Origin: Alkanindiges illinoisensis DSM 15370
GTDB taxonomy: Bacteria; Pseudomonadota; Gammaproteobacteria; Pseudomonadales; Moraxellaceae
Assembly (NCBI RefSeq): GCF_000619845.1
Contig: NZ_KK211037.1
Location: forward strand, 30,001 to 62,000
DNA: 32,000 nt
Direction: 5' to 3'
Shown: piece by piece, positions 4-20,237 of the stretch
Position numbering within the stretch: the stretch's first letter is position 1
How the letters are laid out: each line of letters opens with the position of its first letter
Translations under genes and position numbers: made by a program
The notes under the pieces: model-generated
What the model was told of the DNA's origin: nothing
The model's database searches: none
The model's input: only the letters and a program-made list of their open reading frames with translations

Positions 4-2700
4 ATGATCACTTGTAATACTAGAGCGACTTTTGGTTCCAGACGGTTTTTATGGGCACAACTGGGTCTGCTGGCGTTAAGCATTGGTAGCCTGTTTTGCC
101 ACGATGCACATGCTGCACCGCTGGCTGGCACGATTATCAGCAACATGGCTATTGGTGAATATAAGGAAGAAGGCTCAAGCGTGGTGCAAACCAGCCGCTC
201 CAACCTGGTTCAAACCACCATTATTCCGGTTTATACCTTTACCCTGACCGCCAACCGTAGCGTGCAAGCCACTGCGGGCCAGCGGGTATTTTTCTCGCAT
301 GAACTGAGCAATACCGGCAACAGCACGGATCGCTACAATTTAACTGCTGCCAACCTGACTGGTGATAATTTTGATTACAGCAGTATTGTGGTGTATCTGG
401 ATGCCAATCGTGATGGCATTCCTGATGGCAGTGCAATTAGCAGTTATAGCCTGGCCGCTGGTGAATCAATAGGTTTGCTGGTTGGTGCCACCATTCCAGC
501 CGGTAGCAGCAATGCGGCAACTGGTGATGTCCAGCTCACCGCCACCTCACAAACCAGCAGCCAGTCCCAGCAAAATACCGACCGCAGTACGGTGAGCAAT
601 CAAGCCGTGATTCTGGTGCGCAAGTCATTTTCAGTCAGCACCGTTAATCAAAACCAGATTGTGACGGTGCGGCTGGATTATGAAAATCCCGGCGTGGTGG
701 CCAGCGGGCAGGTTAGCATCAGTGATACCCTTAACGCTGCACAACTCTCCTATGTGAATGATGGCACTGAAAACTGGAATGGCCAGATTGTTGATCCTGC
801 TACTGGTAGCAATGATCCAACAGGGATTAATTATTATTTAAATGGCAATACTATCAATGCGGTATTAACCAGTGTCCCGGCAGGTAGTTCCGGTTTTATC
901 CAGTTTAAGGTTAAGGTGAACCAAGTATTACCCGGCCGTATTCCCAACACGGTGCAGGTGAGCTATGACCACGACAACAGTGCGGCCACCACCGATATTA
1001 GCACAAACAGTAACACGGCAATTTTAACCATTAATCCCAGTTATGGCGTGGAAATCAATGGCATTTCTACCAGTGCCAGCAGTGCTGCAGCCGATAATCT
1101 GGTAACAGCCCCTGCGGTCAGCTCCGGTGGCGAGCTGCTGTTTAGGAACTATGTGTGGAACACCGGCAATAGTGAAGACCGTTTTAATCTAAGCTTTACC
1201 AATGACAATTTCCCAACCCCGCATCAGGTGGAATTCTACCGTGCCGATGGCGTGACGCCGTTGCTGGACAGCAATGGCGACGGCATTACGGATACCGGAC
1301 TGTTACAGGCGGGTGAAAAACTGGAAATTGTGGTCAGGTTACGCACCCCAACCACCTTTGCAGCCAGCGCTACCACCAGCTATAGCCTGTTTCCAAAAGC
1401 GCAATCGCTGGGCAACAGCAGCAAAACCGATACCGTAGAAGATCGCGGCAGTATCATCATTACCGATGCCAGCCGACTGGTGGATTTAACCAACAGCCCG
1501 GAAACCAGCAACAACGGAACGGGCAATAGCAGTATCAAGAATGCAGGCAATCCATGGAAAACCCTCACCGGGAGCTCATCGGGCACGGTAATTTTTCCAT
1601 TGTCAGTCAAGCATATGGGGACGCCCACAGCGTATGCCTTGAGCGCCGATGCCGATGGCAATTTTACTACCGTGGACTTGCCGCAGGGTGTGGCTGCCAT
1701 TCGCTTTTACCAGTCAACCAGTAATAGCTGTACTACGCTGGGCAGTGAAATCCAGCAAACCCGCCTGCTGGCTGATGGTGAAAGCCAGTTGTACTGCGCG
1801 GTCGTGACATTAAAGGCTGATGTAGCCACTGCCAGCAATATTCCCGTGTATTTCAAGGTGGCATCCAGCACTTATGTAAGCAGTAATAACGCCAGCAATC
1901 CCGGCTTTGATACCCTGATGAATGCCATTAATATCAGCAGCCTGAATAGCACTGGCAGCGTGGTGCTAACACCGGATCTGCGCGGACAGATTGCCCCGAA
2001 TGGCACGATTGTGTATAGCCATAACCTGATTAATAACGCTGCAACAGCACTTAATGGTAACTATTATCTGGCCATTAGCAACGACCAGCCCGGTTTTGAA
2101 ACTACCCTGTATTATGACCTCAACAACAATGGCCAGCTTGACAGCACAGACCTGCTGATTAATGGCACCTACAACATTAATGGCAGCATGATTGCCGCAG
2201 GTGCCCAGTTGCGGATTTTCGCCAAGGTACAGAACACGGGTTACAGCGGGGTAGGGGTGGTCAATACCACCAATATCATCATGCGTGATGGCAGTAACAA
2301 CACCATTGATTCGGTCACTGACATTACCACCATTAGTGCCACCCAGATTCGCCTGTCAAAACTGCAAGCCAAGGATAATAACTGTGATGGCGTGGCTGAG
2401 GGCAGCTATACCGCTGCCACCTTAACCATTGGCCGCAATGCTAATGGTTCCGGCCAGTGTGTGCTGTACCGTGTGACCGTACAAAATCAGGGTGCACTCA
2501 ATATTGGCGCATTCAACTTCCGGGATACCACACCGGCTGCTACCGTAATGGTGATTGCGCCAGTGTGTAGCAGTTGCACTGCAAATACCATTAGCGCGCC
2601 TGCCATTGGCCAGTCCGGCAGTATCAGCGGCACCGTTCCAGCAGTTGCCAGCGGCGCAAGCCATGTCTTTGAATTCGGGGTGCGCTATGCCGGCCAATAA
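4..2700 (+). CDS. Secreted multi-domain Ig-like (DUF11/CARDB-type) fibre subunit, paralog A. It has an N-terminal orphan strand and a C-terminal truncated DUF11-like domain.
   Basis: Uninterrupted 898-codon ORF with ATG at nt 4. The frame is open to the window edge, so an upstream start cannot be excluded. Sec-type signal peptide MITCNTRATFGSRRFLWAQLGLLALSIGSLFCHDAHA/AP. T/S/N/G/A-rich protein with recurring beta-sandwich signatures (FFSHELSNTGNSTDRYNL, VWNTGNSEDRFNL, YSHNLINNAA) and DxNxDG loops (YLDANRDGIPDG, DSNGDGITD, DLNNNGQLD). Co-linear with the 900-aa ORF at 10180-12882. Confidence 0.8.
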   Translation: MITCNTRATFGSRRFLWAQLGLLALSIGSLFCHDAHAAPLAGTIISNMAIGEYKEEGSSVVQTSRSNLVQTTIIPVYTFTLTANRSVQATAGQRVFFSHELSNTGNSTDRYNLTAANLTGDNFDYSSIVVYLDANRDGIPDGSAISSYSLAAGESIGLLVGATIPAGSSNAATGDVQLTATSQTSSQSQQNTDRSTVSNQAVILVRKSFSVSTVNQNQIVTVRLDYENPGVVASGQVSISDTLNAAQLSYVNDGTENWNGQIVDPATGSNDPTGINYYLNGNTINAVLTSVPAGSSGFIQFKVKVNQVLPGRIPNTVQVSYDHDNSAATTDISTNSNTAILTINPSYGVEINGISTSASSAAADNLVTAPAVSSGGELLFRNYVWNTGNSEDRFNLSFTNDNFPTPHQVEFYRADGVTPLLDSNGDGITDTGLLQAGEKLEIVVRLRTPTTFAASATTSYSLFPKAQSLGNSSKTDTVEDRGSIIITDASRLVDLTNSPETSNNGTGNSSIKNAGNPWKTLTGSSSGTVIFPLSVKHMGTPTAYALSADADGNFTTVDLPQGVAAIRFYQSTSNSCTTLGSEIQQTRLLADGESQLYCAVVTLKADVATASNIPVYFKVASSTYVSSNNASNPGFDTLMNAINISSLNSTGSVVLTPDLRGQIAPNGTIVYSHNLINNAATALNGNYYLAISNDQPGFETTLYYDLNNNGQLDSTDLLINGTYNINGSMIAAGAQLRIFAKVQNTGYSGVGVVNTTNIIMRDGSNNTIDSVTDITTISATQIRLSKLQAKDNNCDGVAEGSYTAATLTIGRNANGSGQCVLYRVTVQNQGALNIGAFNFRDTTPAATVMVIAPVCSSCTANTISAPAIGQSGSISGTVPAVASGASHVFEFGVRYAGQ

Positions 2701-2734
2701 GTTTATGTCTAAAAATTTAGAAGGGTGCAACCGC

Positions 2735-5700
2735 ATGCCAGCCCAGCCTGTAACCGCCAGTCAAACTGGTCAGACTACTAAAGCGCCAGCCACTTCCCAT
2801 AGGTTGCTGTCGGTATGGCTAAAAACAGCCATGCTCGTCTTGCTGGGTGCAAGTTCCGGGCTGTATGCGGCACCGCCAACCATGGAGTTATTTACCGCAG
2901 GTGGCAGCACCACCGCAACTGGGCCTAGCACATCAGCACAAACCAATACCTATGCCTTTAACCCGGATAACCCATCAGGGACAACGGCATCCAGTACCTA
3001 TTATCCCAAGACAGCGGTTACCTATACCATTGAAAACCAGCAATACACTGGGACGCTGGCAAATACCGGTCTGGTGTTTGGTGGTGATGGTGACAATATC
3101 TATATTCCTTTAAGTGGACAGGGCTCACCAGCCGCTACAGATTTTACCTCCAGCCGTTTAAATGCAACACCCGGTACTGGTATTGATATCAATAATAACT
3201 ATGGCACCCGCTTCTTATTAAGGGCAGGCAGACTTGATAATAATAGTACGCATAATACAAGTACTGTAAATGGTGGCTTAGGCCATTATTTTGGCGATAT
3301 TGTGGTGGCCTGGAACCGGCCGGTTTTTAATCCTATTATTAATATTTCTGGCTTGGGCGGAACATCAAGTAATTTGGGTTTTGCAGCACAATTCCAGCTA
3401 AGCAGTCCGCCAACAGGCACAACCATTAGCCGGCTCTCTGGCCGTAATATGGGTGTGTCAGGTTTTAATATTACCAATACCGCTGCTGATATTGGTGCAA
3501 CCGCCAGTGCTGGAGGTTCTAGCGGCAGTATTCAGGTTTTAAACGATAACCCGATTACTACCTTGCGCTTTAGGGTGTATGTCCGCAGTGATAGCACTAC
3601 CAATAGTACAGACTGGGGCAGTACTACTGCCGCCGATGCCTTTGTATTTAGTGCTTCCAGTGTGGATTCTACCGTTGGTGATTTATACGTTAGCAAAACC
3701 AATAACACGACATCTGTCGTGCAGGGTGGCAGTACAACTTATACCGTACGTGTGACCAATGCCGGGCCAAGTACTATTGCAACACCTATTTTAAAAGACA
3801 GTAGTAGCACAGGATTGACTGCAACGGCAGTGGGCTGTAGTAGTGCCAGTGGTAACAAGTGTACCACCACACCCACCTTAGCCAGTTTAAACAGTGGCAT
3901 TACCATTGCCTCACTGGCCAGTGGCGAATTTTATGAAATTCTGGTGACATCCAATGTTACGGCTAGCAGTGGCAACGTCACCAATACGGCCACGGTTGAA
4001 TTACCTAACTTTGCCTCCTCAACAGGTGAAAGCTGTGTGACGTCTAATGGCATTACCCGTAGTTATAATCAAACGACAGGGACTTGTACCACTACCGATA
4101 CCGACAGCGTAACACCTGCGACCAACTTGGCTATTACCAAAACTGGAACAACTTCTGTCAAGGCAGGCCAGCCAGTTAGCTATACCATTAAGGTCTGGAA
4201 CAAGGGACCTGCAGCAGTCACTGATGCGGTAATGACCGATAATGTGCCGGCCAATATTTCCGGGCCAATTCTAACCTGTGTGGCCAGTGGCACGGCAACC
4301 TGCGGTACATTCAATACCCATGTTGCAGGCAGCAATGCCCGTAGCGCAACAGGGATTAGTCTACCTGTGGATAGCACGGGCAATACCAGTTATGTGACCT
4401 ATACGGTCACAGGTTTGGCTTATCAAACCGGAACATTTACCAATACAGCAACCATTAGCTCAGCTTCTGTGCCAGAAACTGACAGTTCAGACAATAGTGC
4501 TTCCAAAAGCACAACCATAACTGTGGATGCGCCTGTCACCAGTGGCACTGCATCCAATCAATGTAGTGCGGCACAGGCAGTGAACATTCTCACGCCAACA
4601 GCATTTACGGTATTTGACGGTGATGGCACTGGTGCCAGTTTTACCGGAACGCTGGCGGCAACAGTCAATAATACCGGAACAGTCTATGGCACCGGCACCA
4701 ATGGCGCGATTGTGTTGAGTGGCAAGTTGTCATGGTCTTATGGTTCACCCATCGTAACTGGCTCAACGCTAAGTATTAGAGTTAATGGCGTTGACTATGC
4801 TGTTCTAACCACGCCTGGAGCTTCCAGCAACGGGTCAGCCAGTTCCAATGCAGGCACTGCTACCCTAACTGCTTTAAACGGTGCTTCGGTAACGCCAGCA
4901 ACCTTAACTATTGATAATACCTATACCAGTTATACTGGCCGTGCTACCTTTACACTGACCCTGCCTACCGGAGTAACTTCCATTACCAGTGCGCAGGCGG
5001 TTTATCAAAATAATAATCCACGCACACCAACTGGCAGTACCGGTGATGACTTTGGGGTATCGCTGGATTCAGCACTGCAATGTCAAAAGCCGATTGTTAA
5101 AATTGCCAAGATTTCCAATGGCGGTGTAGGCACATTTGGTTTTACTGGCTTAAGCAACCTGAGCAATGCCAGTGGTACAGCCGTTACTACCGATAGTGTA
5201 AGCACCACCACAGCAGGCACGGCTGTCACCTCTGCGCAGGTGAACTACGCCACAGCCAACAGCACAGCAGTAGGAATCACTGAAAGTGCAGTGTCCGGTT
5301 ATAACCTGACAGCAGCCAGCTGTACTGATGCCAATAGCGCTGTTACCAGCAATACCGGGAGTTTTGGTAGCCTGTCCGGCAACACCTTAACCATTCCCGC
5401 TGCCAATGTGAAATACGGTGCTAACCTAACCTGTACTTTTAACAATACCAAACAGCGTAACCTGACCTTGCGAAAAATCTGGGTCAATGCACGCATCAAT
5501 GATGCAGCGACCATCACGGCAACAGGCCTAAACAGCTTTGTCTCCACAGCCAATACAGCCAGTGAAACCGATACTGCCAGTGCACAAGCAGTAACTGTGG
5601 GCAGTACAGTAACTCTGGGTGAAAATATTTCTACCGGCGCAGGCTATTATAATGCGGTACTAAGTTGTACACGCGATAGTGACAATGCAGCCGTTAGTAT

Positions 5701-8700
5701 AACTGGCAACAACCTGATCATGCCGGATGCTGATGTCACCTGTGGTTATACCAATAGTCGCAAGTCTGCCAGCCTGACCCTGCAAAAAATCTGGGCCAAT
5801 GCCAAGCTTAATGATGCGGCAACCATTACCGCAACTGGCCTGACCAGCTTGTCGGCTGTTGCCAATACTGCTAGCGAAACTGATGTAGCAGCAGGCCAGA
5901 CGGTCTATGCCGGTGACAGCATTACACTGGGTGAAACATTCACTACAGGCAGTATCAGCAACTACACCAGTAGTCTGGCGTGTACAGGTAATGCCACCGC
6001 GCTCACAGGCTCTACCCTGACGGTAAATCCTGCTGACACAGCCATTACCTGTAGTTATACCAATAGCCGGATTGCCCAGCAGTTAAGCCTGTCCAAGCAA
6101 TGGCAAAATGCAGTGAACGGGCATACTGCAACAGCTACCACCACAGGCGGCACCAATAATGCAACGTTTAGCTCAACCTCAACAGGTAATAACAGCACTA
6201 ACGGTAGTGCAGTCACGATGTATGCCGGAGATGTGGTTACCTTGCCAACTGAAACCCTTGGCGGTGGCGCCAGTGCTGCACAATACAACAGTACACTGGC
6301 CTGTAGCGGTGGCACCACCTTGGCCAGTGGCGCAGTGGCACGAAGCATTACCATTAGCAACAGCACCACAGCAACCGTGTGTACTTACACCAATGCGCGC
6401 AAGTCTGCCACATTAACCCTAAGTAAAATCTGGTCTGCAGGCAGTATTGCGGGCAACACAGCTACTGTTACAAGTAGTGGTTTTGGCAACAATGCAACCT
6501 CTGGAACTTCCACTGCAACCACAGCAGGTAATACCACAACCGGCACTAGCGTTACCGTATATGCCGGCGAAAGCGGTACCATTAGTGAAACTTTTGGTAC
6601 AGGCAATGCCAGTAACTACAGTGCTACGCTGGCCTGTAGTGGCAACAGCACTGCGCTCAGTGGCAATACCCTGAGCATTAATCCGGCTGACACGGCCATT
6701 AGCTGTAGCTATACCAACACTGTTGCTGGCACAGATCTTGCCATTGACAAGACTGGAACCAGTAGCGTGACGCAAGGCAACAATGTCAGCTATAGCATCA
6801 AGGTCTGGAATAAAGGGCCGGGTGCAGCCAGCAGCAGCACGTTCACTGACACCGTACCCAGTGCCCTGACCAATGTAAGCTGGAGCTGTAGTGCCAGTGG
6901 TAGCGCTGTTTGTGGTACAGCCAGTGGTAGTGGCAACAGCATTAGCGTGGCAACAGGCACACTGCCAGTTAATGCCAGCAGTACGGCACCAACCAGTGGC
7001 AGCTACCTGACCTTTACGGTAAATGGAACAGCCAGTAGCTCGGGTAATATTACCAACACGGCCACCATTGCCGTGACTTCAGGTGCTGATCCGGTCAGCA
7101 GCAATAACAGTAGCAGTGCCAGCACTACAATTAGTACGCCGGCGGCGATCATTGCCGACACACCGCAAAAAGAAGCACGGTTTGTCATTACTCCTGATCT
7201 GCCCACCATTTATCGCGGGCAGTCTGGCACCCAGCTGATTAGCATTACCAACCAGGGACCGGATGATGCCAGCGGGACTGTGGCTGTTTTCAAACCGCGA
7301 ACCCAGACTGGGGTTACGGTCACCAGCGTCAAGATTGTCAATGGTGCCAACTGTAGCCTGTCTTCCGGGGAGTGGTCATGCCCGGTGGGTAGCATTGCCA
7401 ATGGCGGCAGTTTCCAGCTGCAAGTAGGTTATGACACCACGGCATCCTCTACACTCGGTACTGCTATTCAGGCCGATATCCGGGTAGGGAGTAATGAATT
7501 CAACCCGGGTAGTGGGGTCGGTGAATCACTTTATAACGTCTGGGGAAGTACCAACCCTAATGGCAATAGCCAGTTTAATGAAATCCGTCCTAATGGTGCA
7601 TTTGCGCTGAGTTATGGCACTGCAAATGGCAGTGAAAATGTTAATCTGTCAACTGTATGGTTACCCACTCAGGTTAATCCTACAGGTGCTTATCTGACCC
7701 AGGCAGCTATTGGCGGCAATAACAGTGTCTTTGGCCCTTCAGGCACTTATAATCCAATGATTAGCCGCATCATTACCAGCTTAAACACCGACACAGCCAA
7801 ATCACAGACCCTGCTGGCACTGGATCCTGCTACTCAGGCAGGTGATAACCGCCGGGTATGGCAACTAATTACAGGTATTTATGTGCCTGCCAACAGTACA
7901 GCTTCATTATGTATCGGTAATGCTGGCAGTCAGCTGGATGACGGCGCTTACATCATGCTTAATGGTAGTCAGGTCGGGACAGATGGCAAATGGAGCTCAA
8001 GCCCGTTCATTCAAACCAGTGTGCCTTTAAATACAGGCTACAACCGGATTACTTACCGTATAGCAAATCGCAATACCCCAGGTAGCAATGAAGATTATGC
8101 GCAAGGTCTGTATGGCGAAATCGGCTTGTCAATCAATGGTGGTGCCTGTACCGCAGCTAGTCTGGATGCAACAGCACGGCTACAAATCCCAGCCAGCATC
8201 AACATTGTTGAAAAGCAGGTTGTCAACATTAGCGGGCAAGTATTTGAAGACAACAGTGGCAGCACCGCAGTCAACAGCAATGCTTACAATGGGGTTAAAA
8301 ATATCGGTGAAGCAGGAATTACAGGCAGCTCAGTCAGCATTACCAACTGTAATAGCACGACTGTTGCCACTACCAAAACTGATGCCAATGGTGAGTATAG
8401 CTTTAGCCTGTCACCTACTGATTTGCCAGCAGGCAGTTTCTGTATTGCCCAAACCAACCTAACCGGTTATTCCTCAGTTAGCGGCACGACGGGTTATAGC
8501 CGTGCCACCGACCGAATTACAGTGAGCAATACCGGTGCTAGCAGCTATAGCAACCACAATTTCGGGGATGCACGCTTAACTGCATTGCTCAGTGAAGATG
8601 GCCAGCAAACCATTACTGCCGGCGGCGTGGCTGATTATCCGCATCGCCTGACGGCTCAAAGTGTGCTGACCATCAACAGCCTGAACCAGACCCCCTCACA

Positions 8701-9325: not shown

Positions 9326-9407
9326 TAGAGCCTATATGCGAACCAACATAATTATAGCTCTATATCTTTAGTCTTAGAGGACTTGAAAATTTATTAAAAG
9401 AACTGAC

Positions 9408-10179: not shown

Positions 10180-12882
10180 ATGTCAAAGCACATCGCATTA
10201 CCGCGCTTAAATCAACTGGCTGCGTCCATTGCAGTGGTTGTCGGGGGTCTGGCGCTTGTACCTGCAGCACATGCTGCAGCACCAGCAGCAGGAACCAACA
10301 TCAGTAATATTGCAACTGCAAGCTATACCGATGCAACCAATACACCACGTACTGTGACTTCCAATGAAGTAAAAACCACTGTACTGCAGGTTGCCAGCTT
10401 CACTTTAACGGCTGATCAAACCACTACAGCAAATCCAAATGGACAGGTGAGCCTGGCACATACCCTGACCAATACGGGTAATGGTGCTGATACATTCAAG
10501 GTTGATCTGGCCAACGTTGGTGGGGATGACTACAACTTCAGCAATATTCATGTATATCTGGATGCCGACAAGAATGGCGTACCGGATAATAGCACTGACA
10601 TTAATGGCACGACGATTAGCGTCGGCGCAGGCCAGTCTGTTGGGTTGATTGTGGTTGGTACGACATTAAATACTGCAACCAATGGTCAGGCTGGTAAATT
10701 ACTGGTTTCTGCCACCAACGTATTTACTGCAACCGCAGCAGGTGGCAGCAATACCGCAACTACCGCCAATAATACGGATACCGTTAATATTGTTGCCGGT
10801 GCAGTCATTCAGGTGACTAAATCTGCCAACGTGACCAGCGTAAACCCAACTGGAACTAATCTCCAGCGTACCGTTGAATATACCCTGACCTATAAAAACA
10901 CCGGTAATGCGACAGCAACCAACGTTACTTTAAAAGACGTTCTGCCAGCCAACGTGGCTTATGTTGTCGGTTCTGGTGTATGGAGTGGTTCTGCCACCCC
11001 CCGTACCGATGCTACAGCTGATGAAGCAGGCGCCGCATACGATTTCACCAGCAATACTGTGAATTTTGTTTTAGGTAGTGTTGCACCAAACACCACTGGT
11101 ACTTTGAAATTTAAAGTTGTGGTTAATGCCAATACACCAGCAGGTTCGATTGCCAACACCGCAACCTTTGACCCGGATGGCCCAGGTACTGGTACTCCAG
11201 AACAGCCAACCAACACCACCATTGTAACCGTCAACTCCCTGTACGTCGGTACAATCAACGACTCGCAAACTGATGCCTATGCCGATGCTGATAAAGTAGC
11301 GGGTACTGCTGCAAAAGATGACGTGATCAGTGCAACCACGCAACAGGGCGTAGCCGTTAACTTCGGTAACAACGGTGGCGAGAAGATCTGGATTCACAAC
11401 ACGGGCAACGTATCAGAAACCTACAACATTGCCGTGAATAAAGCTGGCTTACCAGCCGGTAGTATTGTTGAGCTGTTAAAAGCAGACGGTGTAACACCAC
11501 TGACTGATACCAACAGTGATCCAGTTGTGGATTCTGGCCCGGTTGCTGCCGGTTCTGCCCAGCAGATCGTGGCACGTGTAACGCTGCCAAGCACCTACAC
11601 TGGCCCTGCACCAGTTAGCGCAATCCTGACCATTACGCCTGTATCCAATAACACTGCAACTGATACCGTGACGCTGACCATTAGCAGTATTACTGCATCC
11701 AAAGTGGATCTGAGCAATGGCAAAGGTGACAAGGACGGCGTTAAGAACGATACACCAAATGCAGGTGAAGGCGCCTATGTTGCTGGTGACATCATTGACA
11801 CCAAGACAACCAACCCGGCAACACCAGTAACGTTCCCGCTGGCTGTAACCAATTTTGGCAGTACTTCTGACAACTTTAACATCAGCTCAGACCTGCCAAC
11901 TGGCTGGACTGTGAAGTACTATACTTCTGATGCTACTGGCAACTGCTCTACCAACCAGGTCACCAACACAGGCAACATTGCTGTAAATGGTACTGCTTAT
12001 CTGTGTGCGGTAGTGACTTCACCAGCCAATGCAACCCCAGCTGATAGCCGTGACATCGTATTTGCAGTGACTTCTTCAGGTACTGGTTTAACTGATTCGA
12101 TCAAAGACCGTATTACCATTAACGAAGTACGCAACCTGTCATTCACCCCAGATCGTACTGGTCAAATCGCCCCAGGTGGCACAGTTACTTACATCCATAC
12201 CCTGATCAACAACGGTAACGTGACTGAAGGTGCTGGTGCCAACACCCTGCCATTTGCAATTACACATGCTGGCAATCTGGGCGCAACCACTTCTATATAT
12301 GTTGACCTGAACAATAACGGTCTGGCTGAAAATACAGAACTGGTTACGGGTACTGACTTAACTGCATTGCTGGCCACTGGTACAGCAAATGGTGCCGGTC
12401 TGCAACCCGGTGAATCTGTTACCATTCTGGTAAAAGTAGAAGCACCGAGCAACGCAACTGCAGGTCAGGCTGATACTTCAACTGTGACCATTACACCAAC
12501 TGCTGGTGCTGTGGTTCATATTGATGATACCAGTACTGTCAACATTGGTCAGGTACGTTTGACCAAGCAACAGGCAGCCGATGCCAACTGTGATGGAACC
12601 CCAGAAGGTTCTTATACTCAAAACGCCATTCAGGCCAAGCCAGGTACTTGTATCAGCTATCAGATTACTGCAGCAAACGACGGTAATGCCGGTGTTAGCA
12701 ATGTAGTGATCAGCGACGCGGTACCTGTATATACCACGCTGCAACCAGCACCAGCACCTGCCCTGACACCAGCGGCCAAAGGTAGTGTGACGGTTAATGG
12801 TAGTGCACTGGCCAGCAGCGCGTTTACTCTGGCGCCAACTGAGTCTGTAAACCTTAACTTTACTGTGAAAATCAATAACTAA
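10180..12882 (+). CDS. Secreted multi-domain Ig-like (DUF11/CARDB-type) fibre subunit, paralog B. It has an N-terminal orphan strand and a C-terminal truncated DUF11-like domain, and is a candidate major shaft subunit.
   Basis: 900-codon ORF with AGGGG 7 nt upstream of the ATG. Signal peptide MSKHIALPRLNQLAASIAVVVGGLALVPAAHA/AAP. Recurrent motifs LAHTLTNTGNGADTFKV, IHNTGNVSETYNI and YIHTLINNGNV. DUF11 core YTLTYKNTGNATATNVTLKDVLPANV...IANTATF. DxNxDG-like loops YLDADKNGVPD and DLNNNGLAE. Confidence 0.9.
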   Translation: MSKHIALPRLNQLAASIAVVVGGLALVPAAHAAAPAAGTNISNIATASYTDATNTPRTVTSNEVKTTVLQVASFTLTADQTTTANPNGQVSLAHTLTNTGNGADTFKVDLANVGGDDYNFSNIHVYLDADKNGVPDNSTDINGTTISVGAGQSVGLIVVGTTLNTATNGQAGKLLVSATNVFTATAAGGSNTATTANNTDTVNIVAGAVIQVTKSANVTSVNPTGTNLQRTVEYTLTYKNTGNATATNVTLKDVLPANVAYVVGSGVWSGSATPRTDATADEAGAAYDFTSNTVNFVLGSVAPNTTGTLKFKVVVNANTPAGSIANTATFDPDGPGTGTPEQPTNTTIVTVNSLYVGTINDSQTDAYADADKVAGTAAKDDVISATTQQGVAVNFGNNGGEKIWIHNTGNVSETYNIAVNKAGLPAGSIVELLKADGVTPLTDTNSDPVVDSGPVAAGSAQQIVARVTLPSTYTGPAPVSAILTITPVSNNTATDTVTLTISSITASKVDLSNGKGDKDGVKNDTPNAGEGAYVAGDIIDTKTTNPATPVTFPLAVTNFGSTSDNFNISSDLPTGWTVKYYTSDATGNCSTNQVTNTGNIAVNGTAYLCAVVTSPANATPADSRDIVFAVTSSGTGLTDSIKDRITINEVRNLSFTPDRTGQIAPGGTVTYIHTLINNGNVTEGAGANTLPFAITHAGNLGATTSIYVDLNNNGLAENTELVTGTDLTALLATGTANGAGLQPGESVTILVKVEAPSNATAGQADTSTVTITPTAGAVVHIDDTSTVNIGQVRLTKQQAADANCDGTPEGSYTQNAIQAKPGTCISYQITAANDGNAGVSNVVISDAVPVYTTLQPAPAPALTPAAKGSVTVNGSALASSAFTLAPTESVNLNFTVKINN

Positions 12883-12986: not shown

Positions 12987-15900
12987 GTGTTGCGACATAC
13001 GAAAAATAACGCATACCAAGCGACATTCTTACTTTCTACACTTGCAGCGTCTATTGTGATGGCTCAGCAGGGTTACGCGGTAACACCCGTAATTCCAGTG
13101 GCTGGTGTGGCAATCAAGAATACAGCATACGCCACCTATCTTTCGCCAGAAGGCCAAACCCGTAATACCGAATCCAATACCGTTCAGGTTGAAGTAGCAG
13201 CCCTGTACGCCATTTCGCTCACCCAGCCTGCAACCCAGGAAATAGAAGCCGGTGCCCGCGTGGTGTGGCTCAACACCCTGACCAATACCAGCAATACCCA
13301 GGCCAGCATTAATATTGAAAAACTGGTAGCCAGTGGCTTAAGCAATATCAAGATTTATGTTGATAAAAACAAGAATGGTGAGTTTGACGCCAGTGATGAA
13401 GTCCTGAGCGGTTCCATTGTACTGGATCGCCTACAATCCATTAATCTGTGGGTGGTGGCAACAGCATCAGCTAACCTGCAGGATAAGCAGCAATTAAACC
13501 TGCCCATCAAGGCTGTTGTGGTTGAAGACCCGAATGTCACTGCCACAGCAACCGACAGTCTGGTGGCTTACCTGCCAGAACTTACCGCCAGCAAAACGGT
13601 TGATCAGGAAACCTTTACGCCCGGTAGTGGCAAAAGTTATGACCTGAACTACACCCTGACCCTGGAAAACAAAGGCTCACAGGCCATTCGTCCAACCCGT
13701 GTATTTATTGACGGACAGGCGCAGGACATGGTGGTGATGATAGATTCACTGCCGGCCAACACCATTTATAAAAGTGCCCAAAGCAATAATCCCAATGCGC
13801 TGATCCTGTTTAAAACCGGTGACAACAGCTATACCCGCCAGCAGCCGGCTGACCTCAAAAGCATTAATGATGTCGTGGTGGCCTATCCTGCCATTGAAGC
13901 GCACAGCGTTGAACGGGTGCAGCTTAGTGTTAGCATGAACAACAATATTGCCAGCACCACTTTAAATAACCAGTTTGCGGTCAAATACCAACTGGCCACC
14001 GGTGAAAAAACCACCCTGTCTAATATTGCCAAAACCGTGGTATCCGGCAAGTCTGCCATTAGTAATAACACCGGCAATTACAACCAGATTCTGGCTACTG
14101 GTAGCCTAAACAAGCCCTTGTATATTTCTGCCGACAGTGCGGTGTGCAATGCCAGCCGCGCTATCAGCGATCAGGTAAAAATCCGGGTTAAATCCACAGT
14201 TACCGGAGATGTGGTTGAAGTGATTGGTGTGGAAACTGCACCCAACAGCGGCCTGTTTCACTACCAGCTGGCCACGGTTGAAAGCACCACGGCCAATCCG
14301 AATGACCAAATTCTGCAAACAGTCAAGCGGGACAAGGTGCTGGTTAGTCTGGTGAACTGTCTGGATGCCAGCGGCAACCCGACAGCAACCATTAATGATG
14401 TCAACACCAATGTGCTGATTGACCCATACGGTATTGTATTTGATGCCAAGACTGGCAAGCCGGTTGTTGGTGCCAAAGTGACCCTGATGGATGCCAGTGG
14501 CAATCCGGTAGGCAACAATGTGGCCTTTAATGTGAATGCTGAAACTGGCGAGCTGATTTCCATTCCTGCCACGCAGCTCACCAATGAACTGGGTGAGTTT
14601 ATTTATCCGCAGGTGATTGCTGGTAACTATAGCCTGCAAGTGGACACGTCCACCATTCCCGGTTCAACCAAGTACACCTTTGTCAGTGACAAAACCGTTT
14701 ATCCCAGTTTTTCTAGTGATAAAGCCGTTCATCCGCAGTGGTCGTATGGCGGCAACTTTGCCCTGAATAATGGCGACCCGGCGTTAAATATTGATATTCC
14801 AGTTGATCCGGTACTGTCCACGCCAACCTCACCGCTGTTTGTGAAGAAAACCGCCACTCACACCACTGCCGAGCTGGGTGATTTTGAAGAATACACCGTG
14901 ACCGTGGCCAACCGTGGCGAAACGGTAGCGCAGGAGGTGTCCATTAAGGATACCCTGCCACGCGGCTTTATTTATGTGGCGGGCACGGCGCGGGTTAATG
15001 GCGTTAAGGTGAGTGATCCGCTGGGTGGCAAAGGCCCGTATCTGACCCTGGGCTTGGGTAATTTGGATGCCAATAAAGAAGTTAAAATCCAGTACCGTGT
15101 GCAGATTGGTCCCAATGCCTTGAATGGCGATGGTATTAATCGCGTACGCGCGCGCGATGCCAGCGGCGTGGAATCCAACGAAGCTTCGGCCAAAATTGAA
15201 GTCACGCCCGGCGTACTGATGTCGGATGCATTTATTGTGGGCAAGGTCTTTATGGACTGTAACCGCAATGGCATGCAGGATGTGGGTGAGCGCGGTGTGC
15301 CCGGTATCCGCCTGTTCATGGAAGATGGCAGCTATGTCATCACTGACCGTGAAGGCAAATATGACTTTTATGGCGTGAGCGCCAAAACCCATGTGTTAAA
15401 GCTGGATCGCAGCACCCTGCCGGGCAATGCTGAAATGGTATTGCTGGGCAACCGTAATGCCGGTGATGCCGGTAGCCGTTTTGTTGACCTCAAGCGTGGC
15501 GAACTGCACCGTGCCGATTTTGCCATTGCGGATGGCGCAGGCACCTGTACCCAGCCGCTGGTTGAACAGGTTGACAAGCGCAAGGAAAAGATTGAAGAAC
15601 AAAACCTCAATCTGGAACAGGTACTGCGTGCCGACCTGTCATTAGACCCGCTGCGTTATAGCGTGGGCGATGTGCGCAGCCAGCCAGCCAGTGGCTGTAT
15701 CAGTGCGCAGGGCGTTACTGCCAACTGTAATATTGAGCTGTCCAAAGACCAGATTAAAGAGCTGCGTGCGGCACAAATTGAACCCGTCAAGGCACCAGTA
15801 CTGGTTGATCTTGAGCAGGCACTGGCTGAAGCCAATAGCAATCAACTGGCCATTTTAAACTTAAAAGACGGGCAAACCCTGCCGTATGCACAAACCACCG

Positions 15901-18900
15901 TTCAGGTGAAAGGCGTGGCTGGTGCAATGATTGAGCTATGGGTCAATGGCCAGCACATTGATGACAAGCGCATTGGCAAAAAAGCCATTCTGCCGGATTT
16001 CCAGATTGCCGGTTTTGACTATATTGGTGTAGACCTCAAGCCGGGCAGTAACCAGATTGAAGTGCGCCAGCTGGACAGCATGGGTAACCTGCGTGAACAG
16101 CAAAAGATTCAGGTGATTGCTCCGGATCAAATGAGCAAGCTGGCCTTGAGTGCACCCAGGCAGGAAGCACAGGCTAACGGTTCTGATGTGTTCAGTGCTG
16201 TGCTGAAAATTGTCGATCACAATGGCACCATGGTGGCCAGCCGTACCCCGATTACGCTGGAAAGCACCATTGGCAAGGTTGAGATCAAAGACCTGGATCC
16301 TGCTCAGCCCGGCATTCAGGTGTTTGTGGAAGGCGGCACGCTGCTGGTGCCAATTACTGCACCCAGTGAGGCGGGCGAAGGCACCTTAAACGTCACCAGT
16401 GGCATTTATAATGCCAACCTGCCAGTGCGCTTCCTGCCGGCACTGCGTCCAATGATTGCCGCCGGTATTGTCGAAGGGGCGATTTCCTTCCAGAAATTTG
16501 ATCCCAAGCAACTGAGTCAGGTGAACCGCAACGATGGCTTTGAAGAAGAGCTCAACGACATTGCATCCAGTAATGGCGGCAAAACCAACACCACGGGTCG
16601 TGCGGCATTATTTTTAAAAGGTAAGGTAAAAGGCGAATACCTGCTGACGCTGGCTTATGACTCCGACAAGGACAAAGACCAGCGCCTGTTCCGTGATATC
16701 CGTCCTGATGAATATTATCCGGTATATGGTGATGCCGCCGCCAAGGGCTTTGATGCGCAATCCACCAGCAAACTATATGTGCGGGTCGACAAGGGCCGTT
16801 CCTATGTTATGTATGGTGATTACGTTACCCGCACCGACAATGATGACGGCTTGTCTTTAGGCCAGTACAACCGCTCTTTGACTGGCGCGCGCACCAGCAT
16901 TGAAACCGATCGCACCAAAATCACTGGCTTTGTGGCGCAAACCAATGCCACCCAGATTACCAACGAACAGCGTGGCTTGGGCATTACCGGCCCGTATTCA
17001 CTGGGTCAGGTCAGCAGCGATGATGTGCTGCGCAATAGTGAAAAAGTGGAAGTGATTGTGCGTGACCGCAATAATCCGGGTCTGATCATTTCCCAGCGTA
17101 CACTGGCGCGGTTTACCGACTATGAAGTGGATACCTTCAGCAACAGTATTTATTTAAAAGAAGCCGTTTCCAGCGTTGATAGCAACTTAAATCCGGTTTA
17201 CCTGCGTATTACTGTAGAAGCCGATCAGGGCGGTGAAGAATATACCGTGGGCGGGGTGTCCGGCTCGGTAAAAGTCACCAGCAAGGTGCAAGTGGGGGGG
17301 TCTTACGTCAAGAGTGATGACCCGCTCACTGATGAGCAACTGGCCAGTGTCAATACCGTTATCAAGCTGAATGACCGTGCTAAGCTGGTGGCTGAAGTGG
17401 CCCGTAGTGAAAACACCATTGATCCAGCCAACAGCTTATCAAACATTAATGCCAGCACATCGGCCACGGGTGAGCAGTCCGGCACTGCTGGCCGCATTGA
17501 GCTGGATTACAGCATCAACAATATTGAATTGCGTGCTTACCACAATCAGGCCGACAGCGGTTTTTACAACACGGCTTCACCAATTACTGCCGGACGCAAG
17601 GAAAGTGGTATTAAGGCACAGGCACGGGTGGAAAAACTGGGCTTAACCCGTTTTGAAGCCATTCGTACCGAAGACCAGGCCAATCAGGGCGTGCGTCAGG
17701 GCATTTCCGCCAGTGTGGAACGTGCCTTGAACCGCCTGATGTCACTGGAACTAGGTGTGCGCTATTACGAAGAAACCGTGAGCGCTGCTAGTGCCACCAG
17801 CCAGCAGGTAACCCCGTATGATGGCACCACAGTACGCGCCAAGCTAAACAGTGCGCTGCCCTGGGAAGGCTCCAATGCCTTTATTGAATACGAGCAGGAT
17901 ATCAGTGATGCGGATCGCCGGATTTTTGCGCTGGGTGGCAATTACCAGATTAGTCCAAAAGCCCGCCTGTATGCCCGTCAGGAAATTATTTCCAGCATCA
18001 ATGGCCTGTATGAACTAAACGATACCCAGCGCCGCAACACCACCGTGGTGGGGATTGACAGCAATTACAGTCAGGATGGTTCGGTGTTTAGTGAATACCG
18101 GGTACGTGATGGCATCAGTGCGCGTGAAGCCGAAGCGGCGATTGGAACCCGCAACCGCTGGCAAGTGGCCAAAGGAATTTATGCCAACACCAGTCTGGAA
18201 AAAGTCAAGGCGATTGCTGGTACTGACAACCAGTCACTGGACAGCACGGCAGCCTCGGTTGGTCTGGAATACCTGACCAATCCGGACTGGAAAGGGGTAG
18301 CGCGTTTGGAAATGCGCTGGGCTGATCAGTCTGACACCTTGCTCAATACACTGGGTCTGGCTTACAAGCTCACCGATGATGTCACCCTGTTGACCAAAAA
18401 CGTGTTTAGCCAGATTGACAACAAGGGCGATACCACCGGCGATCGTGTAATTGACCGCTTTCAGGTTGGTGCAGCCTACCGTGACTTTGACCAGAACCGC
18501 TTTGATGCGCTGACCAAGCTGGAATACCGTTATGAAAATGACGAAACCAACCTGTCCAGCCCATATCTGCGCAATGTGTATATTTTGTCCAACCATGCCA
18601 ACTTTCACCCGAATCGCAAAACCACGCTGTCTGGTCAGTATGCAGTGAAGTATGTCAAGGCAGACTTTGAAGGCATCAAGTCCACAGGTGCTACCCAGTT
18701 GCTGAGTGGCCGTGCCATGTATGACATCAGCGAGCGCTGGGATGCAGGCATTAATGCCGGCCTGCTGTGGAGCGATGCCAGCGAAGGCCGTCGCCTGCTG
18801 CTGGGCGGTGAAGTCGGCTATTTGTTGGCCGCCAATTTATGGCTGTCTGCCGGTTATAACTTCTCCGGCTACAAGGACAAGGATCTGGCAGATAGCAGCA

Positions 18901-19013
18901 CCACTATTCAGGGGCCTTATTTACGCTTCCGCTTCAAGTTTGATGAAGACCTGCTGAACTTTGATCACAGCAATGTCAACAAATCGCAGGAGCCAGACGA
19001 TGCAGGCCATTAA
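12987..19013 (+). CDS. 2008-aa outer-membrane protein and candidate fibre anchor or pore. Domains in order: signal peptide, orphan DUF11 strand, Ig-like/DUF11/CnaB-like/SdrD-B/Big-like domains, ~830-aa C-terminal beta-barrel-like region.
   Basis: GTG start at 12987 with AAGG 9 nt upstream; TTG at 12990 is an alternative. Signal peptide MLRHTKNNAYQATFLLSTLAASIVMAQQGYA/VTP. DUF11 unit LFVKKTA..YTVTVANRGETVAQEVSIKDTLPRGF..KIQYRVQIG..SNEASAKIEVT. SdrD-B-like GKVFMDCNRNGMQDVGERGVPGIRLFMEDGSYVITDREGKYDFYGV. Prealbumin/CnaB-like DPYGIVFDAKTGKPVVGAKVTLMDASGNPV. Big_1-like ANGSDVFSAVLKIVDHNGTMV. From ~nt 16440 the sequence shows alternating amphipathic strand pairs with aromatic and G/N/D/S turns (e.g. 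RIELDYSINNIELRAYHN, RFQVGAAYRDF..LTKLEYRYEN, LLLGGEVGYLLAANLWLSAGYNF). This region ends in the beta-signal-like GPYLRFRFKF at 18915-18941. Confidence 0.9.
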   Translation: MLRHTKNNAYQATFLLSTLAASIVMAQQGYAVTPVIPVAGVAIKNTAYATYLSPEGQTRNTESNTVQVEVAALYAISLTQPATQEIEAGARVVWLNTLTNTSNTQASINIEKLVASGLSNIKIYVDKNKNGEFDASDEVLSGSIVLDRLQSINLWVVATASANLQDKQQLNLPIKAVVVEDPNVTATATDSLVAYLPELTASKTVDQETFTPGSGKSYDLNYTLTLENKGSQAIRPTRVFIDGQAQDMVVMIDSLPANTIYKSAQSNNPNALILFKTGDNSYTRQQPADLKSINDVVVAYPAIEAHSVERVQLSVSMNNNIASTTLNNQFAVKYQLATGEKTTLSNIAKTVVSGKSAISNNTGNYNQILATGSLNKPLYISADSAVCNASRAISDQVKIRVKSTVTGDVVEVIGVETAPNSGLFHYQLATVESTTANPNDQILQTVKRDKVLVSLVNCLDASGNPTATINDVNTNVLIDPYGIVFDAKTGKPVVGAKVTLMDASGNPVGNNVAFNVNAETGELISIPATQLTNELGEFIYPQVIAGNYSLQVDTSTIPGSTKYTFVSDKTVYPSFSSDKAVHPQWSYGGNFALNNGDPALNIDIPVDPVLSTPTSPLFVKKTATHTTAELGDFEEYTVTVANRGETVAQEVSIKDTLPRGFIYVAGTARVNGVKVSDPLGGKGPYLTLGLGNLDANKEVKIQYRVQIGPNALNGDGINRVRARDASGVESNEASAKIEVTPGVLMSDAFIVGKVFMDCNRNGMQDVGERGVPGIRLFMEDGSYVITDREGKYDFYGVSAKTHVLKLDRSTLPGNAEMVLLGNRNAGDAGSRFVDLKRGELHRADFAIADGAGTCTQPLVEQVDKRKEKIEEQNLNLEQVLRADLSLDPLRYSVGDVRSQPASGCISAQGVTANCNIELSKDQIKELRAAQIEPVKAPVLVDLEQALAEANSNQLAILNLKDGQTLPYAQTTVQVKGVAGAMIELWVNGQHIDDKRIGKKAILPDFQIAGFDYIGVDLKPGSNQIEVRQLDSMGNLREQQKIQVIAPDQMSKLALSAPRQEAQANGSDVFSAVLKIVDHNGTMVASRTPITLESTIGKVEIKDLDPAQPGIQVFVEGGTLLVPITAPSEAGEGTLNVTSGIYNANLPVRFLPALRPMIAAGIVEGAISFQKFDPKQLSQVNRNDGFEEELNDIASSNGGKTNTTGRAALFLKGKVKGEYLLTLAYDSDKDKDQRLFRDIRPDEYYPVYGDAAAKGFDAQSTSKLYVRVDKGRSYVMYGDYVTRTDNDDGLSLGQYNRSLTGARTSIETDRTKITGFVAQTNATQITNEQRGLGITGPYSLGQVSSDDVLRNSEKVEVIVRDRNNPGLIISQRTLARFTDYEVDTFSNSIYLKEAVSSVDSNLNPVYLRITVEADQGGEEYTVGGVSGSVKVTSKVQVGGSYVKSDDPLTDEQLASVNTVIKLNDRAKLVAEVARSENTIDPANSLSNINASTSATGEQSGTAGRIELDYSINNIELRAYHNQADSGFYNTASPITAGRKESGIKAQARVEKLGLTRFEAIRTEDQANQGVRQGISASVERALNRLMSLELGVRYYEETVSAASATSQQVTPYDGTTVRAKLNSALPWEGSNAFIEYEQDISDADRRIFALGGNYQISPKARLYARQEIISSINGLYELNDTQRRNTTVVGIDSNYSQDGSVFSEYRVRDGISAREAEAAIGTRNRWQVAKGIYANTSLEKVKAIAGTDNQSLDSTAASVGLEYLTNPDWKGVARLEMRWADQSDTLLNTLGLAYKLTDDVTLLTKNVFSQIDNKGDTTGDRVIDRFQVGAAYRDFDQNRFDALTKLEYRYENDETNLSSPYLRNVYILSNHANFHPNRKTTLSGQYAVKYVKADFEGIKSTGATQLLSGRAMYDISERWDAGINAGLLWSDASEGRRLLLGGEVGYLLAANLWLSAGYNFSGYKDKDLADSSTTIQGPYLRFRFKFDEDLLNFDHSNVNKSQEPDDAGH

Positions 19014-20148
19014 GTTAAAACTGGCGCTGGCAGCCTGTCTGGTCAGCGGTTTGGCATTGGCCATGCCTGCCATGAGCCAGCCTGTAGCCAATCAGTCTGA
19101 TAACCCGCTGGAACAAAATAGCGTGGCGGCGTTACAACAGCGGGTTCAGCCATTTTTGCAAAGTAATGATGTGCTAACTCAGTACCATGCCCAAAAAGCG
19201 CAAATGTGGCTGACTTATGCGGCCAACCAACACAGTGAGGGCAGCTCCACGGCGGCTGAACAGCAGGCACAGGCGCAAGCCTTACAACTCATTGAACAGT
19301 TGGAACAACAGCAGCCTGTTTCTACTACCACGCCAGTGATTCAGGCTTCCAAAGTCATGCGCCGCGATTTATGGGTCAATGCCGAGTTGCTTAAACAGCA
19401 AGCAGGTTTTGACTGTGCAGCCACTGAAATTGCACAGGCGGAAGTCATGCTGGTGTGGGCTGCTGCCGAACATTGTGAGCTGGGCTGGCGACATTCGCGG
19501 GAGCTGTTTGCGGCGGCTGAGCGCTTGATTGACAAGGCCAATTATCAGGCAGCCAATTGCCATGCTACGGCGCAATCACTGGCCGCCCAGCCCTTACCAG
19601 CATGGAACAAGGCTAATTATCCCAGTCTTGAGCAGTTAAATGGCCCTGAAAAAGGCTGTCATGGTGTGGTTGGCCCATGGCCATTGGTGAGTGCCACAAC
19701 AGTTGCGCCAGTAGTTTCCCAGCCTGTTAATCCAGTAGCTGAACCAGCAACGCAGGACGTTCTACCCAACGTGGTACATTTTGCGCTGGATCAGGCCAGC
19801 TTGTCGCAAGCCTCACAGCAGGTGCTGGGTGATATTGCCACCGTGCTGGGCAAAAATAGCAATTATTCACTGACCCTGTATGGCTATACCGATGCCCGCG
19901 GCAGTCAGGCTTATAATCTGGACTTAAGTCAGCGCCGTGCCAAAACCGTTGAAAACTTTTTAATTCAGCAGGGCGTGGATGCCAGCCGGATTGCCACGGT
20001 GGCTGCCGGTGAGCAGCAATTGATCAGCGATCCAAAAGCGGTTGTGGGTCATGCCTTAAGTCGCCGGGTAGTGCTGGTGTATGCCAGCCCGGATGGACAG
20101 GAAATTAAAACCACATCCCAGACCAGTGACTTACAGCCTGAACATTAA
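19000..20148 (+). CDS. Periplasmic OmpA-C-like (peptidoglycan-binding) protein with a Cys-containing helical N-terminal domain.
   Basis: ATG at 19000 with AGGAG 7 nt upstream; the ORF-track TTG at 18961 was rejected. The start overlaps the 3' end of the upstream gene by 14 nt. Signal peptide MQAIKLKLALAACLVSGLALAMPAMS/QP. The C-terminal OmpA-like motif is VHFALDQASL...LYGYTDARGSQAYNLDLSQRRAKTVENFLIQQGVDASRI..AGEQQ...RRVVLV. Confidence 0.85.
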   Translation: MQAIKLKLALAACLVSGLALAMPAMSQPVANQSDNPLEQNSVAALQQRVQPFLQSNDVLTQYHAQKAQMWLTYAANQHSEGSSTAAEQQAQAQALQLIEQLEQQQPVSTTTPVIQASKVMRRDLWVNAELLKQQAGFDCAATEIAQAEVMLVWAAAEHCELGWRHSRELFAAAERLIDKANYQAANCHATAQSLAAQPLPAWNKANYPSLEQLNGPEKGCHGVVGPWPLVSATTVAPVVSQPVNPVAEPATQDVLPNVVHFALDQASLSQASQQVLGDIATVLGKNSNYSLTLYGYTDARGSQAYNLDLSQRRAKTVENFLIQQGVDASRIATVAAGEQQLISDPKAVVGHALSRRVVLVYASPDGQEIKTTSQTSDLQPEH

Positions 20149-20164
20149 TTCAGGCTGTTTTTTT
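20133..20164 (+). terminator. Rho-independent terminator of the adhesin/fibre cluster.
   Basis: ACAGCCTGAA-CATTAA-TTCAGGCTGT followed by a T7 run. The TAA stop of the OmpA-like gene lies in the loop. Confidence 0.85.
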
Positions 20165-20237
20165 GCCTTCAATCTTTTAGTTCAATTTTCTGGCTTGAAA
20201 TTCTGATAGCTTGTCCAGTTGTTCTCACAATTGAAAA

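Follow-up and report, generated by a model that had tools for sequence, protein, structure and literature searches.

Why would a bacterium keep a row of genes whose secreted proteins stop partway through an immunoglobulin (Ig)-like domain, and why would some of the same proteins begin with the two strands on which such a domain ends? This question is raised by six co-directional genes, P1 to P6 (nt 4-20148, + strand), in a stretch of the genome of Alkanindiges illinoisensis DSM 15370 (contig NZ_KK211037.1, positions 30,001 to 62,000; the whole stretch of 32,000 nucleotides (nt) is the window below). Signal peptides are present on P1 to P5. The Pfam and NCBIfam domains in the locus are DUF11 (now CLIPPER), DUF7507, DUF7619, SpaA_4, and SdrD_B; P2, P4, and P5 pass the Pfam DUF11 (PF01345) threshold, and database names are limited to "DUF11 / SdrD B-like domain-containing protein." The surplus and missing pieces are complementary in sequence and profile, and we consider it likely that the locus encodes a modular fiber whose subunits complement one another in trans through a split Ig-like domain of the CLIPPER (DUF11) family.

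N-terminal tags and truncated C-terminal domains

P1, P4, and P5 share a conserved segment of ~40 residues, referred to here as the tag, that resembles the last two strands of a DUF11/CLIPPER domain. A preliminary description, made from the sequence alone, had located this segment at the mature N-termini of these three proteins and its placement is correct throughout: P1 residues 38-74 (nt 115-225), P4 residues 33-70 (nt 10276-10389), and P5 residues 32-72 (nt 13080-13202). Each segment begins directly after an AXA-type signal-peptide end (AHA/A in P1 and P4, GYA/V in P5), with cleavage sites placed by the -3/-1 rule together with conservation. A 40-residue tag hidden Markov model (HMM), trained on P4/P1-family sequences alone and with P5 outside the training set, matches P1 at residues 37-77 (E 2e-16), P4 at 33-72 (E 4e-22), and P5 at 36-71 (E 1.6e-8); the similarity is far above chance. 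P2 and P3, which had been described as lacking the segment, give no match to the tag HMM, nor does P6. The same distribution holds by family, with an N-terminal tag in 140 of 145 P5 proteins, 0 of 30 P2 proteins, and 0 of 79 P3 proteins. Among 378 P4/P1-family proteins, the median position of the tag glycine is residue 38, just past the signal peptide. Within Moraxellaceae, the tag belongs to the better conserved portions of the subunit, and its pattern (AAPxAGTxIGNQASATYTDxxGxxRTxTSNxVxTxVxQVA) is found in cluster representatives with just 31-45% overall identity; P1 carries a variant, ISNMAxGEYxEEGS.

Multiple alignment and profile-profile comparison both identify the segment as the closing part of a complete DUF11 unit, as the preliminary description had it. 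A complete internal CLIPPER domain of P4 stood for the intact fold and supplied the template for the profile comparison. Against the resulting 150-column profile, the N-terminal segments align solely to the C-terminal columns (112-150; E 3e-5), and comparison of the tag with four other subunit domains and the C-terminal domain gives E-values of 0.06-0.5. Tag residues map to no other part of the fold, and the conserved tag starts exactly at the canonical AXA cleavage site, so its removal by a site further downstream is unlikely. The idea that these segments serve as donor strands is thus supported, and the partner domains described next extend it; donor function in trans is a computational prediction.

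The preliminary description overlooked these partners. P1, P2, P4, and P3 each end in a domain, referred to here as the acceptor, that lacks exactly the strands found in the tag. The P4 acceptor occupies columns 2-112 of the 150-column profile (hhalign, 98% probability, E 2e-14). In the terminal domains of all four proteins, the Pfam DUF11 match stops at about column 76-87 of 114: the P4 acceptor covers columns 8-85 and the match stops where the protein stops, and in P2 it runs to column 84, at the protein end. Scanned alone, the P4 and P2 acceptors score 31.5 and 29.7 bits, above the DUF11 cutoff of 24.6. The acceptor C-termini end in a beta-strand followed by 2-6 residues, and in 378/378 P4/P1-family proteins the chain ends 6-14 residues (median 6) past the last acceptor strand. 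When tags are appended in chimeras, the Pfam DUF11 match grows to column 101 of 114 for the P4 acceptor with the P4 tag, column 111 for the P4 acceptor with the P5 tag, and column 96 for the P2 acceptor with the P1 tag. These acceptor-tag chimeras can be aligned over their whole length with six complete domains of the locus and show no gap at the junction, and the loop before the Asn strand is reconstituted by a few C-terminal and five N-terminal residues. Sequence searches of the PDB with a chimera and with a complete P2 unit gave no match. The P4 acceptor also has an invariant Cys pair (NCDG...C; Cys804 and Cys824, window 12589-12651), found in the P1 acceptor as well. Located in an insertion that separates the Lys strand from the strand after it, the pair has no counterpart in the complete internal domains and may form a disulfide that pre-organizes the incomplete domain.

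A split Lys/Asp/Asn triad and natural fusions

In the CLIPPER crystal structure (PDB 9IFR), an isopeptide bond joins Lys715 to Asn806 with Asp748 as the catalytic residue, and the triad Asn lies 22 residues before the domain end, compared to 17-25 in the related families checked (PMC12617251). In the terminal domain of P4 this triad is split: Lys796 and Asp846 are in the acceptor, and the sole equivalent Asn is Asn43 in the tag. Lys796 is kept in 375/378 P4/P1-family sequences, Asp846 in 376/378, and Asn43 in 367/369 ungapped homologues. The split triad is as well conserved as the intact triad of the internal domain (Lys214, Asp253, and Asn326; 372-376/378). The acceptors of the P1 and P2 families have both Lys and Asp in 30/30 members each. 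None of the Asn residues in the P4 acceptor is conserved as a cis partner; the sole near-invariant one, N833, is the counterpart of N240 in the internal domain, whose isopeptide Asn is a different residue. In two outliers (P0183 and P0262), Lys and Asp have been lost together. A conserved Lys and Asp with no cis partner are hard to explain unless the partner arrives in trans.

Asn43 lies 27 residues before the end of the tag, a placement that fits the published triads. Asn62, in the TSN motif, was considered as the reactive residue and not preferred, as it is only ~8 residues from the end, versus the published 17-25. In a few tags, Ala or Ser replaces the conserved Asn (GTMISASASATF), as in a Polaromonas P5 homologue (L066:12631-18687), P0170, and P0269; junctions made with such tags may be non-covalent.

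Natural fusions show how the two halves fit together. P0121 (3865 aa) and P0139 (2023 aa), both of metagenomic origin, consist of whole ~870-residue modules fused in tandem, and at five fusion junctions an acceptor runs into a tag and on into the next module, with neither a linker nor a signal peptide between them. The triad residues Lys, Asp, and Asn occupy their expected positions at these junctions, with Glu for Asp at one of them. This indicates that the acceptor and tag halves make one ordinary domain in a single chain, and the fusion topology indicates that an acceptor pairs with the tag of the module that follows it and not with that of its own module. Both fused relatives (P0121 and P0139; L081:1606-7677) end in dockerin-like repeats (DPNCDGxVxxDDLTIVTxxFG), which suggests a different, non-barrel mode of anchoring in metagenomic hosts; for P0139, a short metagenome fragment was the single contig found.

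Coordinates of genes and features of the fiber locus in the window (aa, amino acids).
Feature	Nucleotides	Strand	Residues or length	Remarks
P1	4-2700	+	898 aa	Tag and acceptor
P1 signal peptide	4..114	+	1-37	Ends in AHA; hydrophobic core and AXA read from sequence
P1 candidate donor tag	115..234	+	38-77	Candidate isopeptide Asn47, nt 142-144
P1 candidate acceptor	2341..2697	+	780-898	Lys786, nt 2359-2361; Asp841, nt 2524-2526
P2	about 2705-9325	+	2206 aa	Acceptor, no tag; candidate tip adhesin
P2 candidate acceptor	8990-9322	+		Lys2102, nt 9008-9010; Asp2153, nt 9161-9163
P3	9648-10145	+	165 aa	Small, secreted, acceptor-like, no Lys or Asp
P4	10180-12882	+	900 aa	Tag and acceptor
P4 candidate donor tag	10276..10395	+	33-72	Candidate isopeptide Asn43, nt 10306-10308
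P4 internal complete CLIPPER domain	10801..11238	+	208-353	Lys214, Asp253, Asn326; Pfam DUF11 match
P4 candidate acceptor	12547..12879	+	790-900	Lys796, nt 12565-12567; Asp846, nt 12715-12717
P5	12987-19013	+	2008 aa	Tag and C-terminal barrel (predicted)
P5 candidate donor tag	13080..13205	+	32-73	Candidate Asn45, nt 13119-13121
P5 C-terminal region	16431..19010	+	~860 residues	Predicted outer-membrane beta-barrel; candidate anchor, terminator, or pore
P6	about 19000-20148	+	about 382 aa, counted from internal Met	OmpA-like
Terminator-like hairpin and T-run	20133..20168	+		End of P6

Structure prediction bears on whether the tag meets an acceptor. The AlphaFold2 model of full-length P4 (86 homologues) has a mean predicted local distance difference test score (pLDDT) of 89, and the tag forms two long strands, with pLDDT of 84, 96, 90, and 94 for the blocks of residues 31-70. 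When the acceptor is deleted (residues 1-787, same homologues), these blocks drop to 74, 80, 78, and 84; other blocks of P4 are equal or rise by up to 8 points, except residues 521-530, an already low-confidence loop that goes from 51 to 45. This tag-specific drop fits a tag-acceptor contact, of a kind that a single chain cannot assign to cis or trans. The dependence on the acceptor of the same chain, and the presence of both tag and acceptor in P4 and in P1, would also suit self-complementation in cis, in which the hairpin of a subunit folds into its own C-terminal domain and forms an intramolecular bond, with no polymer. We find this decidedly unlikely. Single-chain predictions commonly satisfy intermolecular covariation intramolecularly, and the locus has orphans, consistent in relatives, that need trans partners (the P5 tag without an acceptor, and the P2 and P3 acceptors without a tag). 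Moreover, the fusions complete the acceptor of module n with the tag of module n+1. That the truncated C-terminal domains are completed in trans, by tags from partner subunits, is in our judgment quite probable.

Docking in trans need not be covalent, and the Lys, Asp, and Asn could serve folding or hydrogen bonding only. Some DUF11 domains lack isopeptide bonds according to the CLIPPER survey (PMC12617251). P3 acceptors are conserved yet lack Lys and Asp, so non-covalent tag binding is evidently useful here, and the few tags without Asn point the same way. However, conservation of all three residues is ~99%, their positions are exactly those of the CLIPPER triad verified by experiment, Lys and Asp were lost jointly in two proteins, and engineered splits of isopeptide domains (SpyTag, SnoopTag, and isopeptag) react spontaneously in trans. 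Purely non-covalent complementation, which would give no reason for the conservation of the triad, appears improbable, and a covalent junction moderately probable. We also considered that the tag is no donor at all. It could instead form a hairpin integral to the first domain, or act as an export or recognition signal read by, e.g., the P5 barrel or P3, with the C-terminal domains representing a compact seven-strand CLIPPER variant. The C-terminal domain does match the more compact DUF7507/CLIPPER_2 family, and no stretch of the subunit is better conserved than the tag, which would suit a sorting signal; the tag hairpin also persists without the acceptor. But DUF7507 domains keep their own Asn strand (PMC12617251) and these acceptors have none, the conserved Lys and Asp without a cis partner would be left unexplained, the match of the tag is confined to the missing columns, and in the fusions tag and acceptor form one ordinary domain. 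We regard a tag without donor function as highly improbable.

Several observations weigh against trans ligation as we propose it. The tag-acceptor contact in the models is read from changes in pLDDT alone, and the tag remains a hairpin at pLDDT 74-84 without the acceptor. Mean-field direct coupling analysis (333-378 sequences, ~178 effective) was too noisy to show tag-acceptor contacts: gap artefacts dominated first, and many impossible domain 1-acceptor pairs remained after filtering. The hhalign probability for the 40-residue tag is about 72-73%, and the gain in Pfam score from added tags is small (1-3 bits). The P1 acceptor falls below the DUF11 threshold (16.1 bits, E 0.014) and reaches just column 76; adding the P1 tag to it contributes 0.3 bits and extends the match to column 84, short of the appended tag. 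A few relatives lack the Asn (e.g., P0170, P0269, and the P5 homologue in L066), and the window contains no dedicated secretion component besides the P5 barrel. A Foldseek search with the full-length P4 model was uninformative, matching only generic multi-Ig proteins (alpha-2-macroglobulin, complement, ciliary central-apparatus proteins, and PrgB).

A proposed fiber and its conserved cassette

In the assembly that we propose, the shaft subunits P4 and its paralogue P1 each carry, as C-terminal acceptor, a CLIPPER domain minus its last two beta-strands, and removal of the signal peptide would expose those two strands as an N-terminal hairpin donor tag. The tag of one subunit would insert into the acceptor of the subunit ahead and complete its fold. 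Docking would then trigger an autocatalytic Lys-Asn isopeptide bond, the acceptor providing Lys and the catalytic Asp and the tag providing Asn, and so weld the subunits like a natural SpyTag/SpyCatcher. The predicted order runs from tip (P2) through shaft (P1 and P4) to anchor (P5): P2, with an acceptor and no tag, would be the distal tip adhesin, and P5, with a tag and a barrel in place of an acceptor, would be both chain terminator and anchor. P1 is perhaps an adaptor with its own tag variant. That the product is a surface fiber anchored in the outer membrane with this order of subunits has, in our estimate, about an even chance.

The proposed roles can be compared with what is conserved. 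Across 80 loci, the core cassette is P3-P4-P5, usually followed by P6, with hosts in Moraxellaceae, Burkholderiales, Desulfuromonadales, Thermodesulfovibrionales, Acidobacteria, Verrucomicrobia, and Eisenbacteria; P1, P2, and a further shaft paralogue upstream are found in Moraxellaceae only. P4 matches at E below 1e-30 are representatives of at least 480 clusters (50% identity), and a collection with one genome per species yielded 384 confirmed matches. Hosts include the opportunistic species Acinetobacter junii, A. lwoffii, A. ursingii, and Moraxella osloensis. Two loci (L052 and L070; Burkholderiales, Azoarcus) have the order P4-P3-P5 instead of P3-P4-P5 and a longer P4 homologue of ~1180 aa. 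The proteins could be suspected of being pieces of one broken giant gene; this pseudogene artefact is excluded by the signal peptide that each protein has of its own and by identical gene boundaries that recur in the 80 loci, across several phyla.

P3 is present in nearly every related locus. It aligns to columns 9-113 of 113 of the acceptor profile (hhalign, E 3e-9) and to columns 8-118 of 150 of the complete-domain profile (E 1e-10), and because it stops at columns 113 and 118, P3 also lacks the last two strands. Lys and Asp are each found in 0/79 members of the P3 family, with Leu at the Asp position in 75/79. Judged by these residues, P3 is a non-reactive acceptor. This acceptor look-alike would hold tags reversibly, either as a periplasmic chaperone against premature ligation or as a non-covalent cap; as a cap, it would cover the free tag at the distal end where P2 is absent.

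The C-terminal region of P5 is barrel-like. Scanned alone, it matches Pfam DUF2490 (31.9 bits versus a threshold of 29.8), and P5 relatives match Porin_4 (E 2e-10), OMP_b-brl, YaiO, and Phenol_MetA_deg. The region ends in an invariant RFKFDE motif. Profile search of the PDB found no solved relatives of the P5 barrel region or of P3. Folded subunits may pass the outer membrane through this large barrel. The stretch of P5 that is best conserved across phyla (LFLKGKVKGEYLLTLAYDSDK...LFRDIxPDEYYPVYGDxxxKGFDAQSTSKLYVR; residues ~1149-1400, window 16431-17200) is located at the beginning of the barrel or immediately ahead of it and matches no family; a role as a plug or as a periplasmic docking module is conceivable.

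P6 follows P5 in most related loci, matches Pfam OmpA (E 3e-21), and has a reading frame that overlaps the P5 end (window 18961-19013 and 19000-20148). A lipobox-like LAAC, read from the sequence, is found near its likely start (MQAIKLKLALAAC), and P6 is probably a lipoprotein with an OmpA-like, peptidoglycan-binding C-terminal domain. In the proposed fiber, it would tie the base to peptidoglycan.

Further features of the locus concern its gene content and expression. P2 contains four or five tandem ~105-residue prealbumin-like (SpaA_4 / CnaB-type) units (residues ~790-1342, window 5072-6730), with first strand LxLxK(I/Q)W and last strand C(T/S)YTN(S/A)R, and each unit probably has its own intramolecular isopeptide bond. 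The window begins at the P1 start codon, and the P1 homologue of one related locus (L001) starts two codons earlier (MNMITC...). In Moraxellaceae loci, the upstream shaft-like paralogue is ~886 aa long (e.g., L009:1322-3982 and L017:695-3355), and an equivalent gene may lie just beyond the left window edge. The 320-nt gap between P2 and P3 has a perfect 13-bp GC-rich palindromic hairpin at 9407-9435, and P3-P6, the core cassette, may have transcription or regulation of its own, apart from P1-P2. The hairpin and T-run after P6 likely mark the end of the transcription unit. The remainder of the window (20.3-32 kb) holds housekeeping genes unrelated to the fiber locus, amid which two open reading frames, 20298-20900 (-) and 25278-26582 (+), encode proteins of 200 and 434 aa with no Pfam match.

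Altogether, the locus may represent a new class of diderm surface fiber, a proposal that we hold to be evenly balanced. The class would be defined by a CnaA-like isopeptide domain naturally split into tag and catcher, by subunits that self-ligate without sortase, chaperone-usher, or ATP, by a P5-barrel end, by a P3 mimic that controls premature ligation, and by several, possibly orthogonal, pairs per operon. If confirmed, it would be a fourth pilus route in Gram-negative bacteria, unrelated by descent to the chaperone-usher, type IV, and type V routes, and, among bacteria with an outer membrane, the first covalent pilus predicted to ligate itself. A split domain would also explain an annotation puzzle, namely that these "DUF11 / SdrD B-like domain-containing" proteins always stop mid-domain. 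As a source of tag/catcher pairs made by nature, this operon alone would provide protein ligation with three tags and three reactive acceptors. The split would also form an evolutionary link between giant single-chain adhesins and multi-subunit pili, in either direction, by fission or fusion at a domain loop. We found no description of a split DUF11 system in the full-text literature searched, the coverage of which is incomplete.

Comparison with known assembly systems

The domain family itself is known from CLIPPER/DUF11 adhesins (9IFR; PMC12617251) and from giant bead-on-a-string DUF11 fibers such as GhlA, the grappling-hook-like protein (bioRxiv 10.1101/2025.08.19.671072). The locus shares with them the family, the triad positions, and the proposed role as surface-fiber stalk. 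In those proteins, however, domain and bond are contained in one polypeptide, whereas here the terminal domain is split over two, and the bond would be intermolecular and drive polymerization. Engineered pairs (SpyTag/SpyCatcher, SnoopTag/SnoopCatcher, isopeptag/pilin-C, and DogTag/DogCatcher) likewise keep the strand with the reactive Asn/Asp apart from the domain with Lys and the catalytic acid, and ligate spontaneously on docking. They are laboratory constructs derived from Gram-positive adhesins, whereas the split described here would be natural, and SpyTag and SnoopTag are CnaB-type, compared to the CnaA-like CLIPPER domain of this locus.

In sortase-assembled Gram-positive pili, as in the proposed fiber, isopeptide bonds covalently link multi-domain Ig-like pilins into a chain with subunits for tip, shaft, and base, and the subunits contain intramolecular isopeptide domains, to which the SpaA_4 and DUF11 matches (e.g., in P2) correspond here. 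They differ in that our host has an outer membrane, that the window proteins have no sortase family match in Pfam or NCBIfam and no C-terminal LPXTG, and that linkage is predicted to be autocatalytic by fold completion. Type V pili of Bacteroidia (FimA/Mfa1) share with the proposed fiber Ig-like strand exchange and an anchor subunit at the base, but rely on C-terminal donors and protease-activated lipoprotein precursors and form no covalent bond; no lipobox was seen in the sequences of P1, P4, or P5, unlike in type V pili. The locus is also distinct from type V secretion: window proteins have no match to autotransporter or POTRA/Omp85 families, and the ~860-residue region of P5 matches DUF2490 and porin-like barrels weakly. 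Thus, the locus lies outside the chaperone-usher, sortase, type V pilus, and autotransporter families, because their defining genes and motifs are absent.

Two systems come nearer in mechanism. Chaperone-usher pili (type 1 / P) complete an incomplete Ig-like fold with the N-terminal extension of the next subunit, have a tip adhesin without an extension and a terminator whose extension is present but which cannot accept one, and have an outer-membrane barrel at the base; the polarity, with an N-terminal donor entering the previously placed subunit, is the same. In contrast, no window protein matches a PapD-like chaperone or a FimD/PapC-like usher in Pfam or NCBIfam, and the subunits here are ~900-aa multi-domain rods instead of ~15-kDa pilins. 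The donor here is a two-strand hairpin rather than one strand, and the join is predicted to be covalent. The putative chaperone P3 mimics the acceptor and donates no strand, and the barrel is fused to the terminal subunit. The likeness is therefore a resemblance in mechanism and not membership, as the fold family is unrelated.

In the threads of the archaeon Sulfolobus acidocaldarius (Saci_0406), subunits are joined by N-terminal donor-strand complementation and an inter-subunit isopeptide bond, with no sortase known; the bond is non-canonical, running from the alpha-amine of N-terminal Asp24 to Asn57 between subunits n and n+2 (PMC9715654). Head-to-tail complementation by an N-terminal donor and an inter-subunit isopeptide bond are also what we predict here, but with the canonical Lys-Asn-Asp triad of a CnaA-like domain and between adjacent subunits. 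Fold and subunit size differ as well, the hosts here are diderm with an outer-membrane anchor predicted, and the mature N-termini are Ala or Val, not Asp as in the threads. By analogy, then, the mechanism proposed for this locus is closest to the donor-strand exchange of chaperone-usher pili and to the archaeal threads.

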